Shown here: one piece after another, positions 1,186 through 22,511 of the stretch | Numbering within the stretch: position 1 is the stretch's first letter | How the letters are laid out: every line of letters starts with the position of its first letter | Source: a bacterium | Lineage (GTDB): Bacteria > Zhuqueibacterota > Zhuqueibacteria > Oceanimicrobiales > Oceanimicrobiaceae | DNA: 36,168 nt | Reading direction: 5' to 3' | Assembly: GCA_046757025.1 (NCBI GenBank) | Contig: JBHHXN010000038.1 | Coordinates: forward strand, 1 to 36,168 | The notes under the pieces: generated by a model | Told to the model about the DNA's origin: nothing | What the model saw: only the letters and a program-made list of their open reading frames with translations | Databases searched by the model: none | Program-made: the position numbers and the translations under genes

Positions 1186-1221
1186 AAAAAAGGCGCGTCA
1201 TTAGGAAATGACACGCCTTTC
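1186..1221 (-). terminator. Intrinsic terminator of the cytochrome b6 operon
   Basis: The minus strand reads AAAGGCGTGTCATTTCCTAATGACGCGCCTTTTTT: a GC-rich stem plus U-tract about 35 nt after the last gene. Confidence 0.75.
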
Positions 1222-1254
1222 TATATTTAAATGAAATAAGTGATACGAGGAGAG

Positions 1255-2043
1255 TTAACTGCCGACTGTAAATTCCATGTTGGCTTCCGCAGCCGCACCG
1301 GCGGTCACGGTGACTTCCATGGATTTTTTCCCCAACGATTCCTGCCAGAATTCGACGGAATAGGTGCCCGCAGGCACATCTATTAATTCAAAATTACCTT
1401 CGGAATCGGTTACGACATAATAAGGATGATCAACCACGCAAACATACGCACCCATCCAGTTATGCACATCGCAGGTTACGCGGATGAATTCCGCCTGGTC
1501 GAATGTTTGTTTCATTTCTTTATTAAATCCCGGTTGGGCTACGTTGACTGGTGAATTGAGCTCGCTGTAAGTGTGAATGTTGTGCAAAATACCGTCGCTG
1601 TTTTTGATGGTTAATTCAGCGCCGGTGGGAATCAATACCACGTGCGGTTTGAACGCGCAGCCATTCTGATCGATGGCAAACGTCGTGCCCAGAGAGGACA
1701 GATCTTTACCGGCGCTGATATTGGAGATACTAACTACGACGTTGGCCAGACCGTTTGAGCTGGAAACGACGAGGTCTTCTTTGTAATGCGGTTCTTTGCT
1801 GCAAACCGCCACATCTTTGGTCACTTCTAATTTTTGTTTTGGCGGCACCGCGCCGGAAAAAGTCACTCTTCCAGTGATGGAGCCGCCATCGGTGACCGCT
1901 ACCGCTTTGTAAGCTCCGGTTTCGGCTGCGGATTCGGTTTTTGGAGCCGTTTGTTTAGTTTGATCGGTCTCTCCCCCGCCTCCGCATGAAAATGCCAAGG
2001 CCGCTATCAACTGCGCTAATGCTATGGTAATTATTTTTTTCAT
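1255..2043 (-). CDS. Lipoprotein with cupredoxin-like core and carboxypeptidase-regulatory-like beta-sandwich
   Basis: Lipobox LAFS-C. Motifs DQNGCAFKPH, LHNIH and CDVHNWM supply a His/Cys/His/Met set resembling a type-1 Cu site. The C-terminal TDSEGNFELIDVPAGTY is CarboxypepD_reg-like. RBS GAGGAGG precedes the start. Confidence 0.75.
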   Translation of the reverse strand: MKKIITIALAQLIAALAFSCGGGGETDQTKQTAPKTESAAETGAYKAVAVTDGGSITGRVTFSGAVPPKQKLEVTKDVAVCSKEPHYKEDLVVSSSNGLANVVVSISNISAGKDLSSLGTTFAIDQNGCAFKPHVVLIPTGAELTIKNSDGILHNIHTYSELNSPVNVAQPGFNKEMKQTFDQAEFIRVTCDVHNWMGAYVCVVDHPYYVVTDSEGNFELIDVPAGTYSVEFWQESLGKKSMEVTVTAGAAAEANMEFTVGS

Positions 2044-2089
2044 GGATTCCTCCTCAAAAAAGATTTTGTTATGAAATGTCGAATAAGCA

Positions 2090-4723
2090 TTAATTTTTTA
2101 CAAATCTGTGTATGTTCATGAGATAATCGGTTAAGGCTTCAATTTGTTTCTCCGGATTGCCTTCAAAAATATTCGGCGGTGCCGCATCCGGATAGAATCC
2201 CGGCATTTTGGTACCAGGCTGCTGTGCTTGCGGATTGGCAATCCAATCAAATACCCAGTCTGGATTCAGCCGGTCAGGCGCCAATAGAAAATCCGGCGCC
2301 CACCCAGCCGGCGGCCCTTCGGGTTTTTTCTTGCCAACTTGGTGACAACTGTAGCAGCTCAAATAGTCGGTTGAAAACAGCGTTTCGGCGGCTTTTATTT
2401 CTTCGCTGGTCAAATCCACATCGATTTCCATGAACGCCTCGCTCATCCCTTCTAATGCCTGAAAATACTCGATGAGCTGGTTGACTTCTTCGTCACTGAG
2501 GTCAAAAGACGGCATGCGGATATTCAGCCATGGCCGAATGTTGATGGTGGGGTTTTTCAGAAATCCGAATAGCCAGTCCGGTTGCACTTTGCGTCCCTCG
2601 CCGATGAGATCGGGCGGAGCAAAGGAGATGGCTTCTTCAGGAGCACGCCCTTCGACTTTGAAGGATTCAGCAAGGATTGACCGGATGAATCCACCCTGAC
2701 CTTCAATGATATGACAGCCGATACAATTATATTGTCTAACCAATCGGCGGCCTTTTTCGATGGCGTCGCCCAATCGCCCCATATCGTGAAGATACTCTTT
2801 ACCGATGACCCGGCCATCCCAGCTTTTCAGGATCAAAGTCATGGTATTGGCTTCTTCCTCTGAAAAGGCGAAGTTCGGCATGCGTTGCGCCACGGCTTCG
2901 GTTTCATACATGCGGGAATTGAGCATCTTGCCTTTGGTCCAGGCGTACCAGGTTTCTTCAGGTACTCGGCCATCTGCCAGGGCGTCACCGAAAAAGAGTT
3001 CTTCAGGAGTTTTGGCGCCAAATTCATTCAACGCGACACTCACCTTGCCTTCTTTTTCCATGCCCGGAATATCATGACAACCGTGGCATCCAAAATTTCG
3101 AATAATGGCCTGGCCTTCTGCAACGAGCTCTTTGGAGTTCAAATCCACAGTCTGCAATTGGTTTTCCGCAAGACTCGAGTCGGTATTGGACATGAGGTAG
3201 GCTACGATATCCCGGGCTTCGGTGTCGTTCAGTCGAAGATTGGGCATAGTCGTGTTGGGGTTGTACTGTTTCGGATTTTTTATCCAGGCATAAAGCCAAT
3301 CTCGATTAACTTTACTGCCAATTTTTGTCAATTCGGGGGCGATGTCATAACTGACGTCGGTTCTATTTACCTGCCGGTCTTGTTCAGTTATCACATGACA
3401 GCCTTTGCAACCCACGCTTTCAACCAGTTTTTCTCCCCGACTGGCCGAACCACCTGCCGGCACTTTTGCCGGTTTGTACTCATGGTTTTTACTTACACTG
3501 TATAAGTACGCTGTGACAGCCGCTGCTTCATCGTGGGAATATTGCGGGTTAGGCATGCGGCTATGTTGTCTAAACGATTTAGTATCTTTCACCCACTGAT
3601 AAATAAAATTGGGGGTGGTTTTTGAAAGAATTTTACTCAATGGCGGACCAATTTTACGAGCCTTTTCATAACCCGCTATTTCATGGCAGCCAAAACAACC
3701 CAGGTCGAAAACCATGCGCTTCGCACGGGACAAATTGGGCGCGTGGTCCAAAGACAACTCTTTGTTGTGACATTTGTTGCAGCCGGCTTCCACGAGTTCA
3801 TTTTTTAAAAGCGGGTGTTCCCAGTGTTTGTCATAGCCATGAGCGTGAAATTCCTGCAGAGCGGGGCCCTGACCTTCATGGCAGGAGGAGCAGGCAAATT
3901 TATTGACGGGATGGGTCTTAAAAAACCATTCCCGATCGGGATGCGATTGAAAAGGTGCAGGATAGTCTTCGTATCCTCTTTTGTCGGCGTTTACGTGGCA
4001 GCTGGTACAGCGGTCAACTTTATCCAGAAAACTCTCAAAATTACCACGTACAAAATTAGGCAGCACCACCTGTTTAATAGAAATTTTTCTGTGATCGATC
4101 AGTGTTAATTTTTCTTGGTGATCTTTGACGGGTTCTACCAGGGCTTCGTATTCTTTTTGCAAGCTATCCACTGCCGACCGATAGCGCAGCAAGCGGGCTT
4201 CTAATTCTTCTTTCTGAACTTCGGCTTCATCCCATTTTATTTTCAAACTGGCCACTTCTGAAATCAATGCATCCACTTTTTTACGGAGCTTCTGGGCTTT
4301 GGAATCCTGGCCGGCGTGTTCAGCATGTTTATATTCATACCAAAGAGCGTCGTATTCGCTTTTTGCGAAACGATAAGCCTGCATCGCTTTATCGATTTCC
4401 ACGTCGGCTTGATGCAGATCGGCTTGCAAATCTTCGTAAGCCTGGCCCTGGAGATGGGCTTTGGCTTGCTGGAGCTGTTCCGTTAATTGCGCCAAATGGT
4501 CCGCGTATTGCAAGTTCAACTCTTCTCGTACCTCAGCTAATTTTTGAGCTACGTTTTGGTATTCAATTTCGTTGAATTTTTTTTGATGTCGTTGCCAGGG
4601 TGCTCTAAAACTGATCATGTCTAAAATGGCCCAGAAAGTCGTTAGAGCTAACAACCCTGCGAGAATTAAATAATACACACTGTATTCTCTTTCTTCGATT
4701 GGCGTTTCTGAACGTTTGGGCAA
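2090..4723 (-). CDS. Membrane-anchored octaheme cytochrome c
   Basis: Eight CxxCH motifs (CTSCH, CSSCH, CNKCH, CFGCH, CKGCH, CHGCH, CIGCH, CYSCH), an N-terminal TM helix and a long coiled coil. TTG start with AGGAGG RBS. Confidence 0.92.
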   Translation of the reverse strand: MPKRSETPIEEREYSVYYLILAGLLALTTFWAILDMISFRAPWQRHQKKFNEIEYQNVAQKLAEVREELNLQYADHLAQLTEQLQQAKAHLQGQAYEDLQADLHQADVEIDKAMQAYRFAKSEYDALWYEYKHAEHAGQDSKAQKLRKKVDALISEVASLKIKWDEAEVQKEELEARLLRYRSAVDSLQKEYEALVEPVKDHQEKLTLIDHRKISIKQVVLPNFVRGNFESFLDKVDRCTSCHVNADKRGYEDYPAPFQSHPDREWFFKTHPVNKFACSSCHEGQGPALQEFHAHGYDKHWEHPLLKNELVEAGCNKCHNKELSLDHAPNLSRAKRMVFDLGCFGCHEIAGYEKARKIGPPLSKILSKTTPNFIYQWVKDTKSFRQHSRMPNPQYSHDEAAAVTAYLYSVSKNHEYKPAKVPAGGSASRGEKLVESVGCKGCHVITEQDRQVNRTDVSYDIAPELTKIGSKVNRDWLYAWIKNPKQYNPNTTMPNLRLNDTEARDIVAYLMSNTDSSLAENQLQTVDLNSKELVAEGQAIIRNFGCHGCHDIPGMEKEGKVSVALNEFGAKTPEELFFGDALADGRVPEETWYAWTKGKMLNSRMYETEAVAQRMPNFAFSEEEANTMTLILKSWDGRVIGKEYLHDMGRLGDAIEKGRRLVRQYNCIGCHIIEGQGGFIRSILAESFKVEGRAPEEAISFAPPDLIGEGRKVQPDWLFGFLKNPTINIRPWLNIRMPSFDLSDEEVNQLIEYFQALEGMSEAFMEIDVDLTSEEIKAAETLFSTDYLSCYSCHQVGKKKPEGPPAGWAPDFLLAPDRLNPDWVFDWIANPQAQQPGTKMPGFYPDAAPPNIFEGNPEKQIEALTDYLMNIHRFVKN

Positions 4724-4784
4724 GGATGCCTCCTTTACGATTTAATTAACGAAAAAAATAGATCCACATTAATTAAATTGATTG

Positions 4785-5663
4785 TCAGATATTGAACCAC
4801 GGTGTTACCCATACATATTTGATATTGAGTGTCCATCTTAATATCATTTTAATGGGGAGTCCCATCATGGTTAAAAATAAAAAGGCCAGGATGGCGTATC
4901 GAACGCCACCCAGAGTTTTGATGAAATCGGAATTTTTCTTCCAAAAATAATAGATCAAGCCCAGTGAGTAGTAGAGGAAAACGACGAATCCGCCGAAGAA
5001 AAACGCACCCACGGGACTGCGAATGCCAAATTTTTCATGCAGATCGACGTTGGTCATGGCCACGACTTTATGCACATCCCATCTTTCCCAGGGCATAAAG
5101 AAATTCCAACCCGGTCCTCGCATAAAGGTACCCACTAGAATCAGCGAAATCCATAAAATAAAAAATCCGAATAAAAAGGTACCGATGGCAAATTTTCGCT
5201 CCTGCCAAGTGTAATAGCCGTTTCCCTTTGGATTTTTGTCGATGTACGGAATGGCCATGAGTCCGATGATGATGAGAGTGGGAAAGATGACGCCAGCGAT
5301 CCAGGGATCAAAATACACCAGCATTTCTTGCAGCCCGAGAAAGTACCAGGGCGCTTTGGAAGGATTCGGTGTGCGCGTAGGATTTGCCGGTTCCTCTAAG
5401 GGAGCGTTGATGACAATGGACCAGACGGTCAAAATAACCATGATCAGGATGGCCGCCAAGAATTCGTTGCGAGTAAGATAGGGCCAGGTGAAAATCCGAT
5501 CCTTACCTTCTTCCTGCAACTGGCTGTATTTACCCGCTGCGATCAAGCGATCATTTTTAGCGGCCTCTCGCATGGACAACCAGGTATAATAACCGATGAG
5601 AAAAATCATGGCAATGATGGGAATGTTGTCAGCTTTGGATAAGATGGCTAAAAATTGTTCCAT
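4785..5663 (-). CDS. Cytochrome b6f subunit IV-like / cytochrome b C-terminal protein (PetD/QcrC-like)
   Basis: APLEEPANPTRTPNPSKAPWYFLGLQE aligns to the PetD ANP...PEWYF region, followed by LMAIPYIDKNP. Several TM helices; lies directly downstream of cytochrome b6. Confidence 0.85.
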   Translation of the reverse strand: MEQFLAILSKADNIPIIAMIFLIGYYTWLSMREAAKNDRLIAAGKYSQLQEEGKDRIFTWPYLTRNEFLAAILIMVILTVWSIVINAPLEEPANPTRTPNPSKAPWYFLGLQEMLVYFDPWIAGVIFPTLIIIGLMAIPYIDKNPKGNGYYTWQERKFAIGTFLFGFFILWISLILVGTFMRGPGWNFFMPWERWDVHKVVAMTNVDLHEKFGIRSPVGAFFFGGFVVFLYYSLGLIYYFWKKNSDFIKTLGGVRYAILAFLFLTMMGLPIKMILRWTLNIKYVWVTPWFNI

Positions 5664-5725
5664 AGTTCTCCTGTCATTCGATTGGTAGAATTAAAACTCT
5701 GTGTGAAAATGTCAATTAAAAATCA

Positions 5726-5805
5726 GAATGACCCGTGGAAAAAATAGTCTTTCCCGTACTTGTTTCGGGATTCAGGCTAAAGCGTATTTTTTCAACTGGT
5801 CATTC
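5726..5805. repeat. 80-bp palindromic element (21-bp inverted repeat, 2 mismatches) in the petB-petD spacer
   Basis: GAATGACCCGTGGAAAAAATA (5726-5746) pairs with TATTTTTTCAACTGGTCATTC (5785-5805). Confidence 0.7.
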
Positions 5806-5951
5806 ATACTACTAATCATGATGCGTGAAAAGAACGCTTCGAACTTTTTGAGAATATTAAAATGAACCACCGGCTTGTTTTATGATAATTATTTGAAAAT
5901 TTCAACTAAAACAGCCGGCTCAGTTTGGTTTTTATCTTAAAAAATCTACGA

Positions 5952-6725
5952 TTAGAGTGGTCCGGAAATGCCGCCGTCTTTACGCACACGCCAGAAATGC
6001 ACAGCAATGAATACTGCCAAAAACAACGGGAAGAAGATACAATGCAGCACGTAAAATCGCAGCAGCGTCGGTGGTCCGACCTGGGTTCCACCCAGCAGCA
6101 CAAATCGCACATCGTTGTCGGGCCGCATTCCGAGCTCGGGCCCAAAAGGCCCTTCGTGACCGAGGAGGGGCGTGGCGCGCGCCATATTGGTTCCAACTGT
6201 CACCGCCCATATCGAAAGTTGATCCCAGGGCAGGAGATAGCCTGTAAAACTCAACAGCAAGGTCACGGTGAGCAAAATGACGCCCACAACCCAGTTGAAT
6301 TCTCGAGGGGGTTTGTAGGAACCGGTTAGAAATACTCTGAACATGTGCAGCCACACGGTAATGACCATACCGTGAGCAGCCCACCGATGCATGTTGCGTA
6401 AAAACATGCCAAACGGGACATCAAACTGCAAATATTTCATGTCGTTAAAAGCGTACTCTGCTGTGGGCCGGTAGTAAAACATCAGGAGAACGCCGGTAAC
6501 GGCTGTTACCAAAAAAAGCAAAAAAGTAATCCCCCCCATGCACCAGGTAAATCGAATGTAACCGGCGTGCCGGGGAATGCGAGTGGGATGGAGATGCAGC
6601 CAGACATTGTCCAGAACCTGAAGATAACGATTTCTGGGGCTGTCTTCATACCCGTGCCGAAACATGGATTTCCAGACCTGAGATTTGAGTAAACCGTCTT
6701 TCATTTTATTGAAAAAAGCTTGCAT
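5952..6725 (-). CDS. petB: Cytochrome b6 (split cytochrome b N-terminal subunit)
   Basis: FTWCMGG carries the heme-ci Cys position. Heme-ligand His pairs are [16 protein letters not shown] and [17 protein letters not shown]. Also [11 protein letters not shown] and [10 protein letters not shown]; ends GGISGPL as b6 proteins do. Confidence 0.93.
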
Positions 6726-6781
6726 CCTATCTCCTTATATTGTAGTCAGATACTGAATATCGTGGGGTTTAAAATGTGAGG

Positions 6782-6810
6782 AATATAACCACATTTTTAT
6801 AAAATGTCAA
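6782..6810 (-). promoter_or_regulatory. Sigma70-type promoter of the cytochrome b6 operon
   Basis: Minus strand TTGACA-17 nt-TATATT, about 55 nt upstream of the petB ATG. Confidence 0.75.
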
Positions 6811-12854: not shown

Positions 12855-15800
12855 CTATTTCACCAGCATTAATTTTTTAACGATCTGCTGATCTCCCATC
12901 TGAATTTTGTAGAGGTACAAACCCGATGCGACGATGCGGCCGTGTTGATCGCGACCGTCCCACGACCGGCTGTAAATTCCAGGAGACAGATGCCCTTGGT
13001 AGAGTGTGGCGATCTTTTCGCCGCGAGTGTTGAACAGGGTCAAAGTGATGTCAGAAGCTTCTGGAACGGCAAATTGGATTTTGGTTTCTAAATTGAACGG
13101 ATTGGGAAAGTTTTGAAAGAGCTCGAATTTCTCCGGTTTCAGGTCCGACTCAGAATCAACCGAAACGTCCGATACCATCATATTGATCTTGAACATTTCA
13201 TCGCTTACGTCTGGAGGAAACACGCCATTGACATCGGATATGCGTACCCGGGCGCTGTCTGATTTGAGGACCGGCACGGTCCACGGGTGACGGCCGTTGT
13301 TTGGCAGATTGTCTGCGATGAGCTGCCAGCTTTTACCGTTGTCCAGTGTAAATTCTAGCTTGACTTGTTCGATGACGCCGGTGGAGTGCCAGGTTATGAA
13401 ATACTCCTCTTCGCTATTCCAGACCTCTCCGCCGTTGGGAGCGGTGATGGTCAGACTGGAGTTAATAATGCTGAAAACCGCATCAGAAGTATCCTTTGGC
13501 GTACCATCTTTTGCGTCAGAAATTATTAAACGTGCTTGGTTGGTTTTAACGTTAGGCACCTGCCAGTTAAATCTGCTGGTATTGGGCAGTGCGTTTTTTA
13601 CAACCGACCAGGTGCCGCCATTATCGGCAGAGAATTCGATTTTTACGGAATCGACGGCGCCGGATGTATTCCATTTCACCTCCGTATGCATCCCTCCGAG
13701 CAAGATTTCGTTGCCGTTGGGATAGCTGAGAGCAAGGGTGGATTTTTCTATGGTAAAAACTGTCTGGCTTTCATCCAACGGAAACCCGTCACTGGCTCGT
13801 GAGATGCGGACCTTTGCGCTGTCGGTTTGAATTTCTGGCACCAGCCAGGGGTAGCTGCCTGCGTTTACAACTGCGGCTGCGATGGTGGTCCAATTTGCGC
13901 CGTTGTTTTGGGAAAAATCAATTTTTACAGAATCGATGGGGCCTTGCCAGGTCCAGCTGATCATTTGTGTACTGCCGCCAAACCACATTTCTCCGCCGTC
14001 AGGCGAAATCAGGGATAGCTCTGGTTGTAGAATGACGAAAGAGCCATTGGAGGTGTCCGCTGGCGTTCCATCCTGGGCATCCGAAATGCGCACCAGCGCT
14101 TCCGATGCTAATAAATCCGGCGCAATGCTCCAAAGGTATTTGCCGTTGTTGGGAGTTTTGGTGGAGATGGACGCCCAGTTTGTTCCGTTGTCTGGCGAAT
14201 ATTCTATTTGCACGGAATCGATGGAGCCAGTGGCTAACCAGACGATTTCGTGCGTGCTCCCGGCATACCAAGCTTCACCGCCGTTGGGCGAAATTAAGGT
14301 AAGATTGGCGCCTAAAATGGTAAACACGTCGTCGCTGACGTCGGATGGTGCACCGTCCGCAGCGTCTGAAATACGGACCAGGGCGGTGGTGGAATGAAGA
14401 TGGGGGAGCTGCCAGAAATAACTGCCGTTGTTTGGAGCATTGGTCGTTTCAGTAACCCAGTTGGCGCCGTTGTCTAAGGAGTATTCAATTTTAATTTCGT
14501 TGATTTGACCATACGACGTCCAACTGATTTTTTGCGTGCTCCCCTCGGGCCAGGCTTCGGGTCCGTTGGGAGTGAGCAGAGTTAGCCTGGCGCCTTCAAC
14601 TTGAAATGTGGCATCGCTTTCATCGGAGGGTGCTCCGTCGGTGGCGTCCGAGACGCGTATCTTACTGCTGTCCGCTTTGGCGTCCGGAACAGTCCAGGAA
14701 TAGCTACCCGTATTTGAAACCGCCGACTCGACAATCTGCCAGTTTTGGCCATTGTCTGTCGAGAACTCGATTTTTATGAAATCTATCAAACCTTGGGCCT
14801 GCCAGGAAATGGTTTGCGTGCTCCCACCTGTCCAGATCTCACCGCCGTTGGGAGTTAGTAGCACAATGATTGATTTTACGATGAAAAAAACGTCGTTTGA
14901 AGCATCGACCACCGCCGGGTCATCTGAAGCAGAAATGCGAATCAGCCCGTTTTCGGTTGCCGTACTGGAAACACTCCAGGAGTAGCTGCCGTTATTGGGA
15001 GCATTAAATGCAAGAGTTTGCCAGGTGCTGCCATTGTCAGGGGAGTATTCAATCTTGACATTGGCAATGTCGCCTGTATGCTCCCACTGAATAGTTTGTG
15101 CAGAGCCGGCTTCGTATTTTTCACCGCCATTGGGTTCAAGTACTGTGATAGATTTGGGAACGATGGGCGATGTTAGGATTTCATACCAAATCACTTTGTC
15201 GTTGCGGGTGACAATGGCGATGTCGTCATCCCCATCTTTGTCAAAGTCGGCCACGGCCGTTCCCCGCGGCCGGGTTTCGTTGCCATCTAAAATAAAAGCG
15301 GTGAAGTTTTCATTGCCGTCGTTCAGCCAGTAGCTGATTTTATTCGGTACGAAACCAGCGGCCACGATATCCTGATCACCATCCAGATCAAAATCACCGA
15401 CAGCGGCGGACCAGGTTTCACCGTACTCTGCGTGCACGTTGCGCTCCGAAAAATTCGAACCGCTATTGTTTTTGAACCAATCGATGTCGCCATTATTGCG
15501 CTGGTTTCTCAACACATCCTTATAACCATCGCCGTTGACATCCGCAGCATAAACAAAAAAAGTTCCAAAAGAGCCAATGTCATTTCTGGTGAAATTTCCG
15601 TTTCCGCGATTTTTCCACCAGGAAGTTTTGCCGCCGCCGCCAGCGAGAATGTCGATGTCGCCATCGTTGTCCAGATCCGCTGCGTGCACCGAGTGCGCCG
15701 CATTAAAACCGTTATCGAGCACGTGGCGGGTGAAGGCTTGCTGACCGTTGTTTTCCAACCAGAATATTTCTTTGCTGCCCCAGGCTGCGGCGAGAATGTC

Positions 15801-16277
15801 GATATCGTTATCGTTATCGAGATCCACGGAATAAATGGATTGCGGTTCCACACTGGCGTTATCTACCAGGCGTTTGCGAAAATTGTTGCTGCCGCGGTTT
15901 TCCCACCAGGTCACCTCATTCAGGTCGGCGGAACAGGCGACCACGTCCAGGTCGCCGTCGTTGTCAACGTCATTGGCGTGTACCGACCAGGCGCCGTCAA
16001 AATTATCGGTGATGTTTTGTCTGGTAAAATTACCGCTACCGTCGTTTTCATACCATTTCAAGTCCGACCGCAAAGCCGCGGCAACGATATCGACGTCGCC
16101 ATCCTGATCAAAATCGATGGCGTGAATCCAATACCCCCCGTCAAAGACAGTGTCGATGACATGTTTGTCTTTTTGAATTTGCGAGTAAGCCTGGTAATTT
16201 GTCCCCGCAATGATCAGAGTGCACAAAATAACGTTACTGGCAAAATTCATATTCATGGTACCAATCCCTTTCATCAC
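12855..16277 (-). CDS. Secreted FG-GAP/VCBS beta-propeller protein with seven Ig-like repeats and an FlgD-Ig/T9SS-type C-terminal sorting domain
   Basis: Signal peptide; repeated D-[FLV]-D-x-D-G-D-x-D-I motifs; seven ~94-aa PNGGE...DNG..W repeats; C-terminal QNFPNPFN...WDGRD..G..VASGLYLY. The exact start is uncertain and may be a few codons later. Confidence 0.88.
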   Translation of the reverse strand: MMKGIGTMNMNFASNVILCTLIIAGTNYQAYSQIQKDKHVIDTVFDGGYWIHAIDFDQDGDVDIVAAALRSDLKWYENDGSGNFTRQNITDNFDGAWSVHANDVDNDGDLDVVACSADLNEVTWWENRGSNNFRKRLVDNASVEPQSIYSVDLDNDNDIDILAAAWGSKEIFWLENNGQQAFTRHVLDNGFNAAHSVHAADLDNDGDIDILAGGGGKTSWWKNRGNGNFTRNDIGSFGTFFVYAADVNGDGYKDVLRNQRNNGDIDWFKNNSGSNFSERNVHAEYGETWSAAVGDFDLDGDQDIVAAGFVPNKISYWLNDGNENFTAFILDGNETRPRGTAVADFDKDGDDDIAIVTRNDKVIWYEILTSPIVPKSITVLEPNGGEKYEAGSAQTIQWEHTGDIANVKIEYSPDNGSTWQTLAFNAPNNGSYSWSVSSTATENGLIRISASDDPAVVDASNDVFFIVKSIIVLLTPNGGEIWTGGSTQTISWQAQGLIDFIKIEFSTDNGQNWQIVESAVSNTGSYSWTVPDAKADSSKIRVSDATDGAPSDESDATFQVEGARLTLLTPNGPEAWPEGSTQKISWTSYGQINEIKIEYSLDNGANWVTETTNAPNNGSYFWQLPHLHSTTALVRISDAADGAPSDVSDDVFTILGANLTLISPNGGEAWYAGSTHEIVWLATGSIDSVQIEYSPDNGTNWASISTKTPNNGKYLWSIAPDLLASEALVRISDAQDGTPADTSNGSFVILQPELSLISPDGGEMWFGGSTQMISWTWQGPIDSVKIDFSQNNGANWTTIAAAVVNAGSYPWLVPEIQTDSAKVRISRASDGFPLDESQTVFTIEKSTLALSYPNGNEILLGGMHTEVKWNTSGAVDSVKIEFSADNGGTWSVVKNALPNTSRFNWQVPNVKTNQARLIISDAKDGTPKDTSDAVFSIINSSLTITAPNGGEVWNSEEEYFITWHSTGVIEQVKLEFTLDNGKSWQLIADNLPNNGRHPWTVPVLKSDSARVRISDVNGVFPPDVSDEMFKINMMVSDVSVDSESDLKPEKFELFQNFPNPFNLETKIQFAVPEASDITLTLFNTRGEKIATLYQGHLSPGIYSRSWDGRDQHGRIVASGLYLYKIQMGDQQIVKKLMLVK

Positions 16278-19471: not shown

Positions 19472-22411
19472 TTAGGGTCTGTCTAGGACTTTTCTCACGG
19501 CATTGGCCAGGTCATTGAGCTGAATGGGTTTGGAAAGAAACGTGTCAGCCCCTAAACTCAAAGCTTCTTGAACTCTTTCAGACATGGCATAGCCCGATAA
19601 AATGATGGTTTTTTGCTCCGGCTTAAATTCTAATATCTGGCGGTAAGTTTCAGTGCCATCGATGCCATCCATGACCATGTCCAGAATCAACAGATCGTAG
19701 CCTTTCTGTTTTACATGTTTTGTGGCCTTTTCTCCACAATCCAGAGTTTCCACTTTGTAACCTAAACGATGGAGAAGTTGTTTGACCACTCTTCTTTGTA
19801 CGGGATCGTCGTCCACAAATAGTATTTTCTCTGTGCCGCCTTTGGATTTTATGATAAAGCTTTCGTCTTCCAGCAGGAGATCTTTTGAAGTTGGAAAATA
19901 AACGGTAAAAGTCGTTCCCTGGCCAAATTTGCTGTCAATCGTGATATAGCCGTGATGGTCTTCGACGATGCCGTGCACCACACTCAATCCCAATCCCGAA
20001 CCGCGCATGCGATCCATCTTCTTAGTGGTAAAAAAGGGGTCAAAAATTCTATGAAAAATTTCGGGTTCAATGCCTATGCCGTTGTCTGATATTTCGAGTT
20101 TAGCGTATTCTCCTCGTTCCACGGTTTGGTAGCCTTTGAGCGGTTCATCCAGATAGATATTTTCGGTTTTGATTTTGAGCGTACCGATATCTTCCATGGC
20201 TTCCCGGGCGTTGACGATGATGTTGGTCAGGGCTCGGGTAATTTGAGCCGTCCCGCCTTTGATACGCAACAGGTCTTCGCTCAGCTCCTTTTCCACAATA
20301 ATTTGTTTGGGTAAATTTTGTGACAGCAAAACATTGTCGACGGCCAGGTTCAAATCGATGACTTCCAGCGAGTAGTGGCCTCTTCTTCCCAACGCTAACA
20401 ATTGTTGGTTGATCTCGGCTATTTCGATGGCAGCCGTTTCCATTTCCATTACCATATCTAAAACCGGATGATCATCCTGTAAGTCTTCTCGTATCAGAGC
20501 AGGATACGCCGTCAGTGGGGCTAACAAATTGTTGAAATCGTGTGCAATTTGTGCGGCAACTTTGCCAGCGGTTTCCAATCGCTGAGAACGAGCCAATTCT
20601 TCTTTCAGGCGTTTACTTTCGGTGATGTCTCGCAACACACCTTCGTAATAGATGGGCTGATTTTTTTTGTTGAACACCATTCTGCCGTGATCTTCCACCC
20701 ACAGCTCGCTGCCGTCTTTCTTTTTCAGTCTGAAAATATTGGATTTGTTTTTGTCTTTACGAAGTTTATCCAGGGCTTCGTTTCTCTCTTCGGGTTTGAA
20801 ATAGACTTCTCGTGGAATATCTAATTTCAAGAGCTCCTCATGACTGTCATACCCTAACATGTTCACCATAGCGGAATTAACCATGAGAAATTTCCCCTCC
20901 GGTGTAGAGCGGTAAATGCCATCGGGCACGCTTTCCAATAACTGGCGGTATTTCATTTCGCTTGCACGTAATGCGTCATTCGCCTTTTTATGCGCGATGG
21001 ATTCGGCCAACACGTTGGCCACCGATTGAATGAAATGGACGTCGTTATTTGTGAACGTTCGTGTGGAAGTCGTGTGCGCCCCTAAAACGCCGTAAGGCCG
21101 GTTTTCACCGGCGATGATCACGCTCATACCGCTGACTACACCGTGATCGAATAACAATTTCGGGCCGCGAAAACGCGTTTCTTTTTGCAGATTTTCCACG
21201 ATCACCGGTTCGTTGGATAGCAGCGTGTAGCCGGCCTGCGAGCCCGTATCCGCGCTGACTTTTGCGTGGCCCACCAGGCCATTCTGCCAGCCCACACCGG
21301 CTTGCAGCAGGAGCTCCTTTCCGTCCGGGAGAAGCTCCAATATTTTGCACAATTCTATTTGCAGGGTTTGGGAAATGAGGTTAACGGCATGGTGCATAAG
21401 TTCATCCAGTCCAATTCCGGTTAAGGCCAGATGGCCTAAATTAGCCACCGCTTCTTGTTGTTGTATGCGTTTTTTTATTTCAGATTCCGTCCGTTTGCGC
21501 TCTGAAATATCTCTGACAACGCTCTGAATATGAACAGGTTGATTGTTTTGATCGTAAACCAGGGCGGCATTGATTTCAACGGGTAGTTTTGTTCCGTCTT
21601 TTTTTATCAAGTTGCGCTCATAGACCGGTAGCGATTCACCGGCCAGAAGCTTTTTTAATTTTTGTTTTGCATCTGCTAAGTGAGAAGGAGCCGCGATATC
21701 TTTTAATGATTTATTTTTCAATTCCTCTATGGAATAGCCTAGCATGTCAGCGGCTTGCTGGTTAACCATGATGTGGTTACCGCTCAGATCGAGAATAAAT
21801 ACCGCATCGCTTGTTCGCTCAAAAAGTGAACGATAGAGAAGCTCTTTTTCTTTTAAAGCGATTTCCGCTAATTTGCGTTCCGTGATATCGGTGTGCAAGC
21901 CGATGGAGCCCACCACATTTCCAACCTGGTCTTCTATTGGTGCTCCGCTTATTTGAACCCAGATGGCTTCGCCCGATTTTTTTTTCATACAAATTTCATA
22001 GATATCGGACTGTTTTTTTTGTCGCAAATTTATTTTTTCATTGATGAGATCGTACTCGCTTTTGCTGTGAAGCAGCATGTTGGCATTTTTACCAAGAATC
22101 TCCTCTCTTTTGTACCCTACTATTTCACAAAAACGGTCGTTGACAAATTCGATGACGTTTTCGTTGTTCACTTGCATGACGCCTTCGTGCATACTTTCGA
22201 CAAGTGCCCGAAAGGTTTGCTCATCTTGTTTTAATTGCGAGTGTGTGCGCTTGCTTTGATCGATTTGTTCTTGCTGGGTTTGAATGGTCTGGGAAAGCTC
22301 TTGTATGGTTTTTTGCTGGTCGCGGTCGACCTTTTTTAAGTGGGCAATGGTTTTTTGAAGGTGCTCTAATGCGTCGATGAGTTCCGATTTTGATTTCTGG
22401 TGGTAGTGCAT
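19472..22411 (-). CDS. Cytoplasmic hybrid sensor histidine kinase (PAS-PAS-GAF-PAS-HisKA-HATPase-REC)
   Basis: Three PAS domains ending DITERK, DISERK and DITESK; GAF (SQAGYTL...YGVLGAH); H-box AHDFNNLL; N/G1/F/G2 boxes (NAREAM, DNGIGI, FDPFFTTK, GSGLGL); receiver VDDD...LILDMVM...SKP. Start placed at ATG 22411, downstream of GGAGG. Confidence 0.93.
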   Translation of the reverse strand: MHYHQKSKSELIDALEHLQKTIAHLKKVDRDQQKTIQELSQTIQTQQEQIDQSKRTHSQLKQDEQTFRALVESMHEGVMQVNNENVIEFVNDRFCEIVGYKREEILGKNANMLLHSKSEYDLINEKINLRQKKQSDIYEICMKKKSGEAIWVQISGAPIEDQVGNVVGSIGLHTDITERKLAEIALKEKELLYRSLFERTSDAVFILDLSGNHIMVNQQAADMLGYSIEELKNKSLKDIAAPSHLADAKQKLKKLLAGESLPVYERNLIKKDGTKLPVEINAALVYDQNNQPVHIQSVVRDISERKRTESEIKKRIQQQEAVANLGHLALTGIGLDELMHHAVNLISQTLQIELCKILELLPDGKELLLQAGVGWQNGLVGHAKVSADTGSQAGYTLLSNEPVIVENLQKETRFRGPKLLFDHGVVSGMSVIIAGENRPYGVLGAHTTSTRTFTNNDVHFIQSVANVLAESIAHKKANDALRASEMKYRQLLESVPDGIYRSTPEGKFLMVNSAMVNMLGYDSHEELLKLDIPREVYFKPEERNEALDKLRKDKNKSNIFRLKKKDGSELWVEDHGRMVFNKKNQPIYYEGVLRDITESKRLKEELARSQRLETAGKVAAQIAHDFNNLLAPLTAYPALIREDLQDDHPVLDMVMEMETAAIEIAEINQQLLALGRRGHYSLEVIDLNLAVDNVLLSQNLPKQIIVEKELSEDLLRIKGGTAQITRALTNIIVNAREAMEDIGTLKIKTENIYLDEPLKGYQTVERGEYAKLEISDNGIGIEPEIFHRIFDPFFTTKKMDRMRGSGLGLSVVHGIVEDHHGYITIDSKFGQGTTFTVYFPTSKDLLLEDESFIIKSKGGTEKILFVDDDPVQRRVVKQLLHRLGYKVETLDCGEKATKHVKQKGYDLLILDMVMDGIDGTETYRQILEFKPEQKTIILSGYAMSERVQEALSLGADTFLSKPIQLNDLANAVRKVLDRP

Positions 22412-22511
22412 TTTGCCTCCAATCATTGGCAGCAAATTCAGCCGGCTAAAAAATTGCTCAACGTTTTTTTTGAGGGCAGATTTGAATTAAAATTATTGGA
22501 GAGCTCAGGGA

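Follow-up and report, generated by a model that had tools for sequence, protein, structure and literature searches.

A cytochrome b6, subunit IV, octaheme cytochrome c and cupredoxin operon with a probable Rieske partner encoded elsewhere in a KSB1-like genome

Introduction

According to Luecker et al. (2013; PMC3578206), the cytochrome bc-like operon of Nitrospina gracilis combines an iron-sulphur (FeS) subunit with a split cytochrome b (cytochrome b6 and subunit IV) and an octaheme cytochrome c of an atypical kind; Ca. Kuenenia stuttgartiensis and Ca. Methylomirabilis oxyfera are reported to share this structure. Kao and Hunte (2014; PMC4122944), in the text available, define an APWY clade of cytochromes b and give the Rieske proteins paired with it Mid+ to high-potential signatures. 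Here we analyse a related operon, at positions 1255 to 6810 of a 36,168-nucleotide stretch of bacterial DNA (the window), which is contig JBHHXN010000038.1 (C38), positions 1 to 36,168, of assembly GCA_046757025.1 (genome G000). The operon codes on the minus strand for a cytochrome b6, a long subunit IV with the APWY motif, an octaheme cytochrome c and a predicted blue copper lipoprotein; it contains no Rieske gene. A Rieske gene on another contig of the same genome very probably supplies this subunit.

As in the Nitrospina operon, to the extent that the available text describes it, a split cytochrome b is followed by an octaheme cytochrome c, and four Nitrospinota loci (L081, L090, L108 and L122) are among the homologs, with subunit IV 59–63% identical. 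Unlike in Nitrospina, where the FeS (Rieske) gene is given as part of the operon, it is here a single gene on another contig; the four Nitrospinota loci also gave no copper lipoprotein gene, which in this operon and in those of many other phyla comes after that of the octaheme cytochrome. The operon may be placed in the APWY clade, a membership based on the motif of its quinol oxidation (Qo) site only. The S-F signature of the detached Rieske protein is within the range given for the clade (PMC4122944, available text), and the organisms of the clade are described there as typically having several Rieske/cytochrome b complexes; G000 has seven cytochrome b genes. The APWY-clade lineages named in that text do not include KSB1, Zixibacteria, Poribacteria or Bacteroidota. 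Operon type and clade were already described in 2013 and 2014, and the only new point is the detached Rieske gene. A literature search outside subscription journals and supplements found no report on the operon in KSB1. Caldithrix abyssi was considered as a cultured reference and set aside: a single Rieske/cytochrome b pair (in the nap cluster) and an alternative complex III are reported in the part of the source available, and the organism seems to be without the operon.

Likenesses to the cytochrome b6f complex are the four-helix cytochrome b6, the separate subunit IV, a conserved cysteine at the heme c(n) ligand position and a predicted blue copper acceptor, which in b6f is plastocyanin. 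In cyanobacteria, the Rieske gene also lies outside the petB-petD operon. Unlike b6f, the operon has no cytochrome f but an octaheme cytochrome c in its place, its subunit IV has 292 amino acids rather than 160 and the motif APWY rather than PEWY, and its copper protein, a lipoprotein, has a beta-sandwich domain in addition. The equivalog cut-offs for b6f are missed, with 206 bits against 325 for NF002990 and 25.9 against 127 for TIGR01156.

The ext genes of Geobacter are found in a gene context with a rhodanese and a porin, neither of which was seen here. ExtP, ExtQ and ExtS (NCBIfam NF040969-71) are a b-type cytochrome, a membrane protein and a cytochrome c lipoprotein of a selenite/tellurite reduction operon. 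Ext models give the best NCBIfam scores for our cytochrome b6 and subunit IV (275 and 60.5 bits). All three scores are under the curated cut-offs (275 against 290, 60.5 against 150 and 46.2 against 100), so the operon proteins are not Ext equivalogs.

A Rieske gene outside the operon

G000 is a KSB1-like genome of 5.96 Mb in 374 contigs, 94.8% complete. A search of the whole genome with the Rieske profile PF00355 gave 11 matches, none of them on contig C38, and a six-frame search of the window with the pattern C.H-x(12-30)-C..H gave one chance match only, in an antisense frame at about 11.8–12.3 kb. An earlier reading made from the letters of the window (the sequence-only reading) had found no Rieske gene in the operon or the window, and was right. 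Of the seven cytochrome b genes, five adjoin a Rieske gene (two on C12 and one each on C292, C103 and C170); the two that do not are the window copy and a second copy on the 2-kb contig C365. The sole bc-type Rieske match with no cytochrome b neighbour is a gene for 204 amino acids at G000:C115:14480-15094, the orphan Rieske. Since the five other clusters each have their own Rieske, the orphan is left with no other cytochrome b partner. The Rieske matches on C4, C100 and C278 were left out of this comparison.

The orphan Rieske protein has an SRRNFF motif like that of twin-arginine translocation (Tat) signals, a single hydrophobic helix at residues 59–77 and the cluster boxes CTHLGC and CPCHGS, the signature that follows CPCH being S-F ('Mid+'). 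Its best NCBIfam models are PetC (71.7 bits) and the proteobacterial Rieske protein (63.8 bits), both under the equivalog cut-offs. The gene looks monocistronic, given a promoter-like TTGACT-17-TATATT site about 65 nt upstream of its start and, further upstream, a possible terminator of the preceding gene. Its neighbours in G000, a response regulator gene downstream and a gene for a 635-amino-acid protein upstream, are not conserved, the upstream protein being partly matched in three of 11 loci. A regulatory motif common to the upstream regions of the operon and the orphan was looked for and discarded: only generic promoter hexamers and one far-upstream 9-mer are shared.

The orphan Rieske is 66%, 60.5% and 49% identical to the operon-linked Rieske proteins of the relatives G021, G032 and G014, respectively; compared with the five other Rieske proteins of G000 the identity is 28–41% or less, the fifth giving no match. 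Thirteen loci of relatives were fetched, ten of them from the same KSB1 family as the window. Cytochrome b6, subunit IV and the octaheme gene are present in all ten family loci and the copper lipoprotein gene in nine, while the fetched stretches of all ten contain no Rieske gene. G021, of the same order, and G032, of the same class, have a Rieske gene downstream of the operon; in G014, whose operon is more distantly related (subunit IV 52% identical), the Rieske gene is directly upstream. A subunit IV alignment was also scanned against one genome per species, which led to at least 591 confirmed relatives in 600 stretches, and the best 80 were kept. In 74 of these 80 loci, a Rieske gene whose product is 46–68% identical to the orphan lies directly upstream of cytochrome b6; of the remaining six, two are from the KSB1 family and four have a contig end at or before cytochrome b6. 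Among the best 80, therefore, all 74 informative loci outside the KSB1 family have the upstream Rieske, in line with the statement of the sequence-only reading that this subunit is usually encoded in the same operon. Phyla in the kept loci include Zixibacteria, Poribacteria, Bacteroidota, Ignavibacteriota, Acidobacteriota, Nitrospinota, Binatota, Myxococcota and Bdellovibrionota. The comparison of relatives that the sequence-only reading had suggested thus places the Rieske gene upstream elsewhere, downstream in G021 and G032, and unlinked in the KSB1 family.

A quick IQ-TREE phylogeny was calculated from the last 150 residues of 93 Rieske sequences, 88 of the operon type and the five paralogs of G000. 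The 12 orphan Rieske proteins of the KSB1 family form one clade with a support of 93 in the Shimodaira-Hasegawa-like approximate likelihood ratio test (SH-aLRT), and this clade nests (again SH-aLRT 93) with the linked Rieske proteins of a Zixibacteria locus and of the relatives G021 and G032. All 88 operon-type sequences fall on one side of a branch with support 99 and the five paralogs on the other; the paralog branches are long, about which the program gave a warning, and the identities show the separation as well. Co-occurrence was assessed in 41 genomes, 23 with the operon type (subunit IV at least 66% identical), G014 with the distant type only and 17 with neither. An ortholog of the orphan was found in 19 of the 23 operon-bearing genomes, in one case as a contig-edge fragment, and in none of the 17 genomes that have no operon.

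To judge by identity, gene order and tree position, the orphan Rieske is the ortholog of the Rieske proteins linked to the same operon in other lineages, and the four subunits of the operon and the detached Rieske on C115 very probably make up one Rieske/cytochrome b6-type quinol oxidoreductase. The sequence-only reading had left a choice between a relocated Rieske gene and a Rieske-less quinol:cytochrome c module. The whole-genome PF00355 search that it proposed leads to the SRRNFF-bearing orphan, and a Tat-type, membrane-anchored ortholog alone on C115 that co-occurs with the operon supports relocation. The Rieske-less module is left unsupported, because the orphan is orthologous to the linked Rieske proteins and co-occurs with the operon. 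As telling against such a module, the sequence-only reading had named a Tat-exported Rieske elsewhere that co-occurs and is co-expressed with the operon, and the co-occurrence part of this was found (19 of 23 genomes against 0 of 17); a search for RNA sequencing runs with the operon listed none. The operon is likely to represent an ordinary member of a widespread respiratory complex III family in an unusual gene layout. A single further search recast what had looked novel as a variant of gene order; for annotation, an apparently Rieske-less cytochrome b operon needs a search of the whole genome before it is given that label.

The complex of cytochrome b6, subunit IV and residues 40–204 of the orphan Rieske was also predicted. 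Its score is 0.56, compared with 0.03 for the best of three controls, and we grade the support as weak. Of the 157 solved complexes, 116 pass the mark used, and of the 215 mismatched pairs, 2 do so; with scores of 0.60 or below, only 18 of the 157 solved complexes pass, as do both of the passing mismatches. At least 97% of contacts recur between runs, and the predicted local distance difference test (pLDDT) score of the partner is at least 82. Because solved b6f and bc1 complexes exist, the pass may mirror mere likeness to these.

Proposed working and alternative explanations

In the complex proposed here, the Qo site at which quinol or menaquinol is oxidised would consist of cytochrome b6, the Rieske head and the APWY loop of subunit IV. 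The Rieske cluster would hand one electron to the membrane-anchored octaheme cytochrome c, the replacement for cytochrome c1 or f; this electron would then reach the blue copper lipoprotein and, beyond it, a terminal oxidase or some other periplasmic acceptor. The second electron would travel across the membrane via the two b hemes to a Qi site, completing a Q cycle.

A gene for COX1, subunit I of heme-copper oxidases, lies near the operon in 17 of 93 related loci, and in Bacteroidota and Ignavibacteriota loci and in G014 it directly follows the copper lipoprotein gene, which suggests that complexes III and IV form a gene unit. Two COX1 genes are present in G000, both away from the window. The position of COX1 next to the lipoprotein gene and its presence in the genome fit a forward flow of electrons to oxygen. 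Loci with COX1 after the lipoprotein gene are L040 (15412-17160; PF00115, E 1.4e-134), L064, L065, L069, L070, L071, L125 and L088.

Several observations weigh against the assignment of the orphan Rieske to the operon or against the proposed working. Four of the 23 operon-bearing genomes (G007, G013, G018 and G019) gave only paralogs of at most 44% identity, also in a second search. The controls of the complex prediction are unrelated proteins, and the prediction cannot tell the orphan from the five paralogous Rieske proteins. The promoter form TTGAC.-17-TATATT, common to the operon and the orphan, is a generic consensus, and such sites are no commoner than in shuffled sequence. If the second cytochrome b6/subunit IV pair, on C365, is real as well as that of the window, one orphan Rieske must serve both. 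Lastly, Kao and Hunte (2014; PMC4122944) state in the available text that APWY complexes, none of them characterised, may run in reverse.

Reverse running is the alternative that survives best, although we hold it to be unlikely. The same subunits would then work mainly in the other direction, a high-potential periplasmic donor passing electrons to the cupredoxin and the octaheme cytochrome c, from where they would be driven uphill to reduce quinone. Kao and Hunte propose this for APWY complexes from a gene cluster of Geobacter metallireducens, and Luecker et al. assign reverse electron transport to the Nitrospina complex, which has the same operon type (PMC4122944 and PMC3578206, available parts). 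The adjacent COX1 genes in several lineages point the other way, the window has no gene for a donor-oxidising enzyme, and APWY-type complexes were biochemically uncharacterised when the proposal of Kao and Hunte appeared, according to the text available. With two papers proposing reverse running for such complexes, net flow may be forward or reverse.

It is very unlikely that the operon codes for a quinol:cytochrome c/cupredoxin oxidoreductase with no Rieske subunit, in which cytochrome b6 and subunit IV feed the octaheme cytochrome directly and the orphan serves another role. Rieske-less quinol oxidoreductases of b-type and multiheme c-type cytochromes are annotated in Geobacter (Cbc complexes). 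The absence of a Rieske gene from the fetched stretches of all ten family loci, the four operon-bearing genomes in which no ortholog was found and a Qo motif, APWY, that contains no acidic residue would all suit such an enzyme. However, the same APWY motif and octaheme partner occur in the 74 loci with a Rieske directly upstream, the orphan is the ortholog of exactly those Rieske proteins and is found in none of the 17 operon-less genomes, and the four genomes in question are fragmented assemblies (G007 is 76% and G019 80% complete; G018, 97% complete, is in 490 contigs and G013, 100% complete, in 950). For two of the four, a same-genus relative carries the orphan ortholog. Nothing in the protein sequences suggests that the Qo site has lost its Rieske partner: cytochrome b6 is highly conserved in the family, and its heme ligands and the stretch around the APWY motif are retained, so there is no sign of decay. 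A variant of this idea, that a separate promoter lets the KSB1 family build the module with or without the Rieske subunit and switch between Q-cycle and Rieske-free modes, the four ortholog-less genomes being Rieske-free only, seems equally far-fetched to us.

The complex might instead borrow one of the five Rieske paralogs, which would either replace the orphan or work beside it. Three of the five do have the same S-F signature after the CxCH box, and the complex prediction is blind to differences between such close cousins. Their identity to the operon-type Rieske proteins is at most about 41%, they fall beyond the branch with support 99, each of them adjoins its own cytochrome b, and it is the presence of the orphan, not that of the paralogs, which tracks the operon; we give borrowing very little credence. 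That the Rieske gene was lost by misassembly, or that the contig is foreign, can practically be dismissed: the assembly is a draft of 374 contigs, and the 2-kb contig C365 has the first two genes in a second, 81–96% identical copy, but the gene order recurs in ten independent family genomes, where several kb of unrelated sequence precede cytochrome b6, G012 has the upstream neighbours of the window (ferritin, phosphoglycerate mutase and acyl-CoA synthetase), and a promoter-like site occupies the place where the Rieske gene would be.

Organisation of the operon and properties of its products

The operon is preceded by a putative sigma-70-like promoter, TTGACA-17-TATATT (6782..6810, minus strand), which matches the consensus at 11 of 12 positions. 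The end of its -10 hexamer is 56 nt away from the cytochrome b6 ATG, in agreement with the distance of about 55 nt from petB in the sequence-only reading, and a GGAG ribosome-binding site comes next. The promoter scan gave 14 sites, of which this is the best-scoring, against a mean of 10.1 in shuffled sequence. Because the count is within chance, only quality and position favour this site. At the other end, an intrinsic-terminator-like hairpin followed by a T run (1187..1222, minus strand) lies 33 nt past the stop codon of the lipoprotein gene; its stem has 16 pairs, six of them G-C, and it corresponds to the terminator that the sequence-only reading had placed after the fourth gene. The four-gene make-up given there, including the octaheme cytochrome, was confirmed by profile matches (PF00033 and PF00032) and by the count of eight CxxCH motifs.

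The cytochrome b6 gene (5952..6725, minus strand) codes for 257 amino acids and matches PF00033 with E 1.9e-43. The nearest solved structures are the b6 chains of b6f complexes (E 5.1e-54), and the protein is 84–96% identical across the KSB1 family. All four heme-ligand histidines, H113, H127, H228 and H243, are present; in 18 orthologs H113, H127 and H243 are invariant and H228 is nearly so. Cys62, in the motif TWCMGG, is presumably the site of a covalently bound third heme, as in b6f. A spacer of 288 nt (5664..5951) separates the gene from that of subunit IV. It contains no credible open reading frame and its length differs among relatives, so the idea of a small gene hidden in it was dropped; in ten related genomes the spacer ranges from about 30 to 308 nt, and the length found here is unusually long.

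Subunit IV (4785..5663, minus strand; 292 amino acids) matches PF00032 with E 2.2e-07 and has about six hydrophobic segments. Residues 55–172 match subunit IV chains of b6f (E 5e-05), and the Qo motif reads APWY in place of PEWY. In the stretch TPNPSKAPWYFL.LQEMLVYFDPW, all residues are invariant among 14 homologs from several phyla, apart from G110, which is nearly invariant.

The octaheme cytochrome c gene (2090..4723, minus strand) codes for 877 amino acids with matches to several Pfam cytochrome c families. The protein has a membrane helix near its amino-terminus (residues 19–37), then about 200 residues with weak matches to coiled-coil-type families, and then the part with exactly eight CxxCH motifs, at residues 239, 278, 315, 343, 439, 546, 667 and 790. 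In nearly all related loci, the gene after that of subunit IV codes for a homolog with eight CxxCH motifs. Neither for the octaheme cytochrome c nor for the long subunit IV did sequence searches of the PDB give a close relative. The family of Rieske, cytochrome b6, APWY subunit IV and octaheme cytochrome c, often with a copper lipoprotein and sometimes with a heme-copper oxidase, is found in at least ten phyla, and the structural and biochemical gap that concerns it outweighs the detached gene in importance.

The fourth gene (1255..2043, minus strand) codes for a predicted lipoprotein of 262 amino acids. Its amino-terminal segment ends in LAFSC, a putative lipobox, and is followed by GGGG. Profile searches match the protein to PF13620 (E 1.5e-09) and a halocyanin domain (E 5.4e-04); no Pfam cupredoxin family passed, and Pfam assigns only the carboxy-terminal CarboxypepD_reg domain, a beta-sandwich. 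An alignment of 20 orthologs from several phyla shows no variation at His154, Cys191, His194 and Met197, or at Asn155 after the first histidine, and the copper loop reads C191-x2-H194-x2-M197. In an AlphaFold2 model (mean pLDDT 87.6), the cupredoxin fold is recognised by Foldseek in the PDB with probability 1.00, the matches being purple cupredoxin, amicyanin, the cupredoxin domain of NirK, plastocyanin and pseudoazurin (E 5.7e-06 and weaker). Invariant ligands and modelled fold confirm the protein as blue-copper-like, the term used in the sequence-only reading, and predict a type 1 (blue) copper cupredoxin lipoprotein.

Paralogs of the lipoprotein, 30–58% identical, are encoded elsewhere in G000, at C63:9244-9990, C3:18721-19551, C334:1-306 and C200:6115-6858; the gene on C3 overlaps the end of a gene for a multiheme cytochrome c of 337 amino acids. 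In G021, a copper-type P-type ATPase gene (L038:14457-16715; PF00122, PF00702 and PF12156, with the cation-ATPase metal-binding domain) lies between the copper lipoprotein and Rieske genes, and its product is a candidate copper supplier for the cupredoxin. Similar P-type ATPase genes come after the operon in two Acidobacteriota loci (L082 and L085).

The second copy of the first two genes takes up G000:C365:1-2000, with cytochrome b6 96.5% and the long subunit IV 81% identical to those of the window. Its promoter-like site is nearly the same as that of the window, and the 160 nt upstream again contain no Rieske gene. No second octaheme gene and just the one orphan Rieske were found in G000. 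The contig is either a true duplicate whose remainder is unassembled, or a fragment from a related population that was binned into G000.

Probable rearrangement of the gene order

From the distribution of gene orders, the Rieske gene probably stood immediately before cytochrome b6 in the ancestral arrangement. Where it comes after the operon, in G021 and G032, the next gene is glgC-like, as read from its amino-terminal sequence. In the family genomes G012 and G005, a glgC-like gene still follows the orphan Rieske, even with the operon on another contig. The most economical account is a move of the Rieske gene to the downstream side, and then a split between the four-gene block and the Rieske-glgC block in the KSB1 family. 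The adjacency of the Rieske and glgC-like genes in loci L038, L039, L045 and L052 would mark the break point of this rearrangement. Upstream, then downstream, then unlinked, the Rieske gene would provide a small, clean example of how the operon of a respiratory complex breaks up.

Other genes of the window and the genome

The rest of the window consists of unrelated genes. Among them are a gene for an FG-GAP repeat protein of 1140 amino acids with a tail for Por secretion by the type IX secretion system (T9SS) (12855-16277, minus strand), one for a hybrid histidine kinase of 987 amino acids with PAS and GAF domains (19472-22435, minus strand), and a fragment of a SusD-like gene (1-921).

Two further Rieske/cytochrome b pairs of G000 are located at C12:24104-25786 and on C292. 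The three remaining Rieske/cytochrome b clusters (C103:11106-18370, C170:3903-10045 and C12:45000-52886; L133-L135) open with a gene for a protein of 627–650 amino acids with Pyr_redox_2, Fer4_20 and 4Fe-4S domains, followed by genes for a Rieske protein, a cytochrome b and multiheme cytochromes c (with eight, eight and five CxxCH motifs); one of them also has a molybdopterin oxidoreductase. Their layout is that discussed for anammox bacteria in the available part of PMC5600118, here present in a KSB1-like genome.

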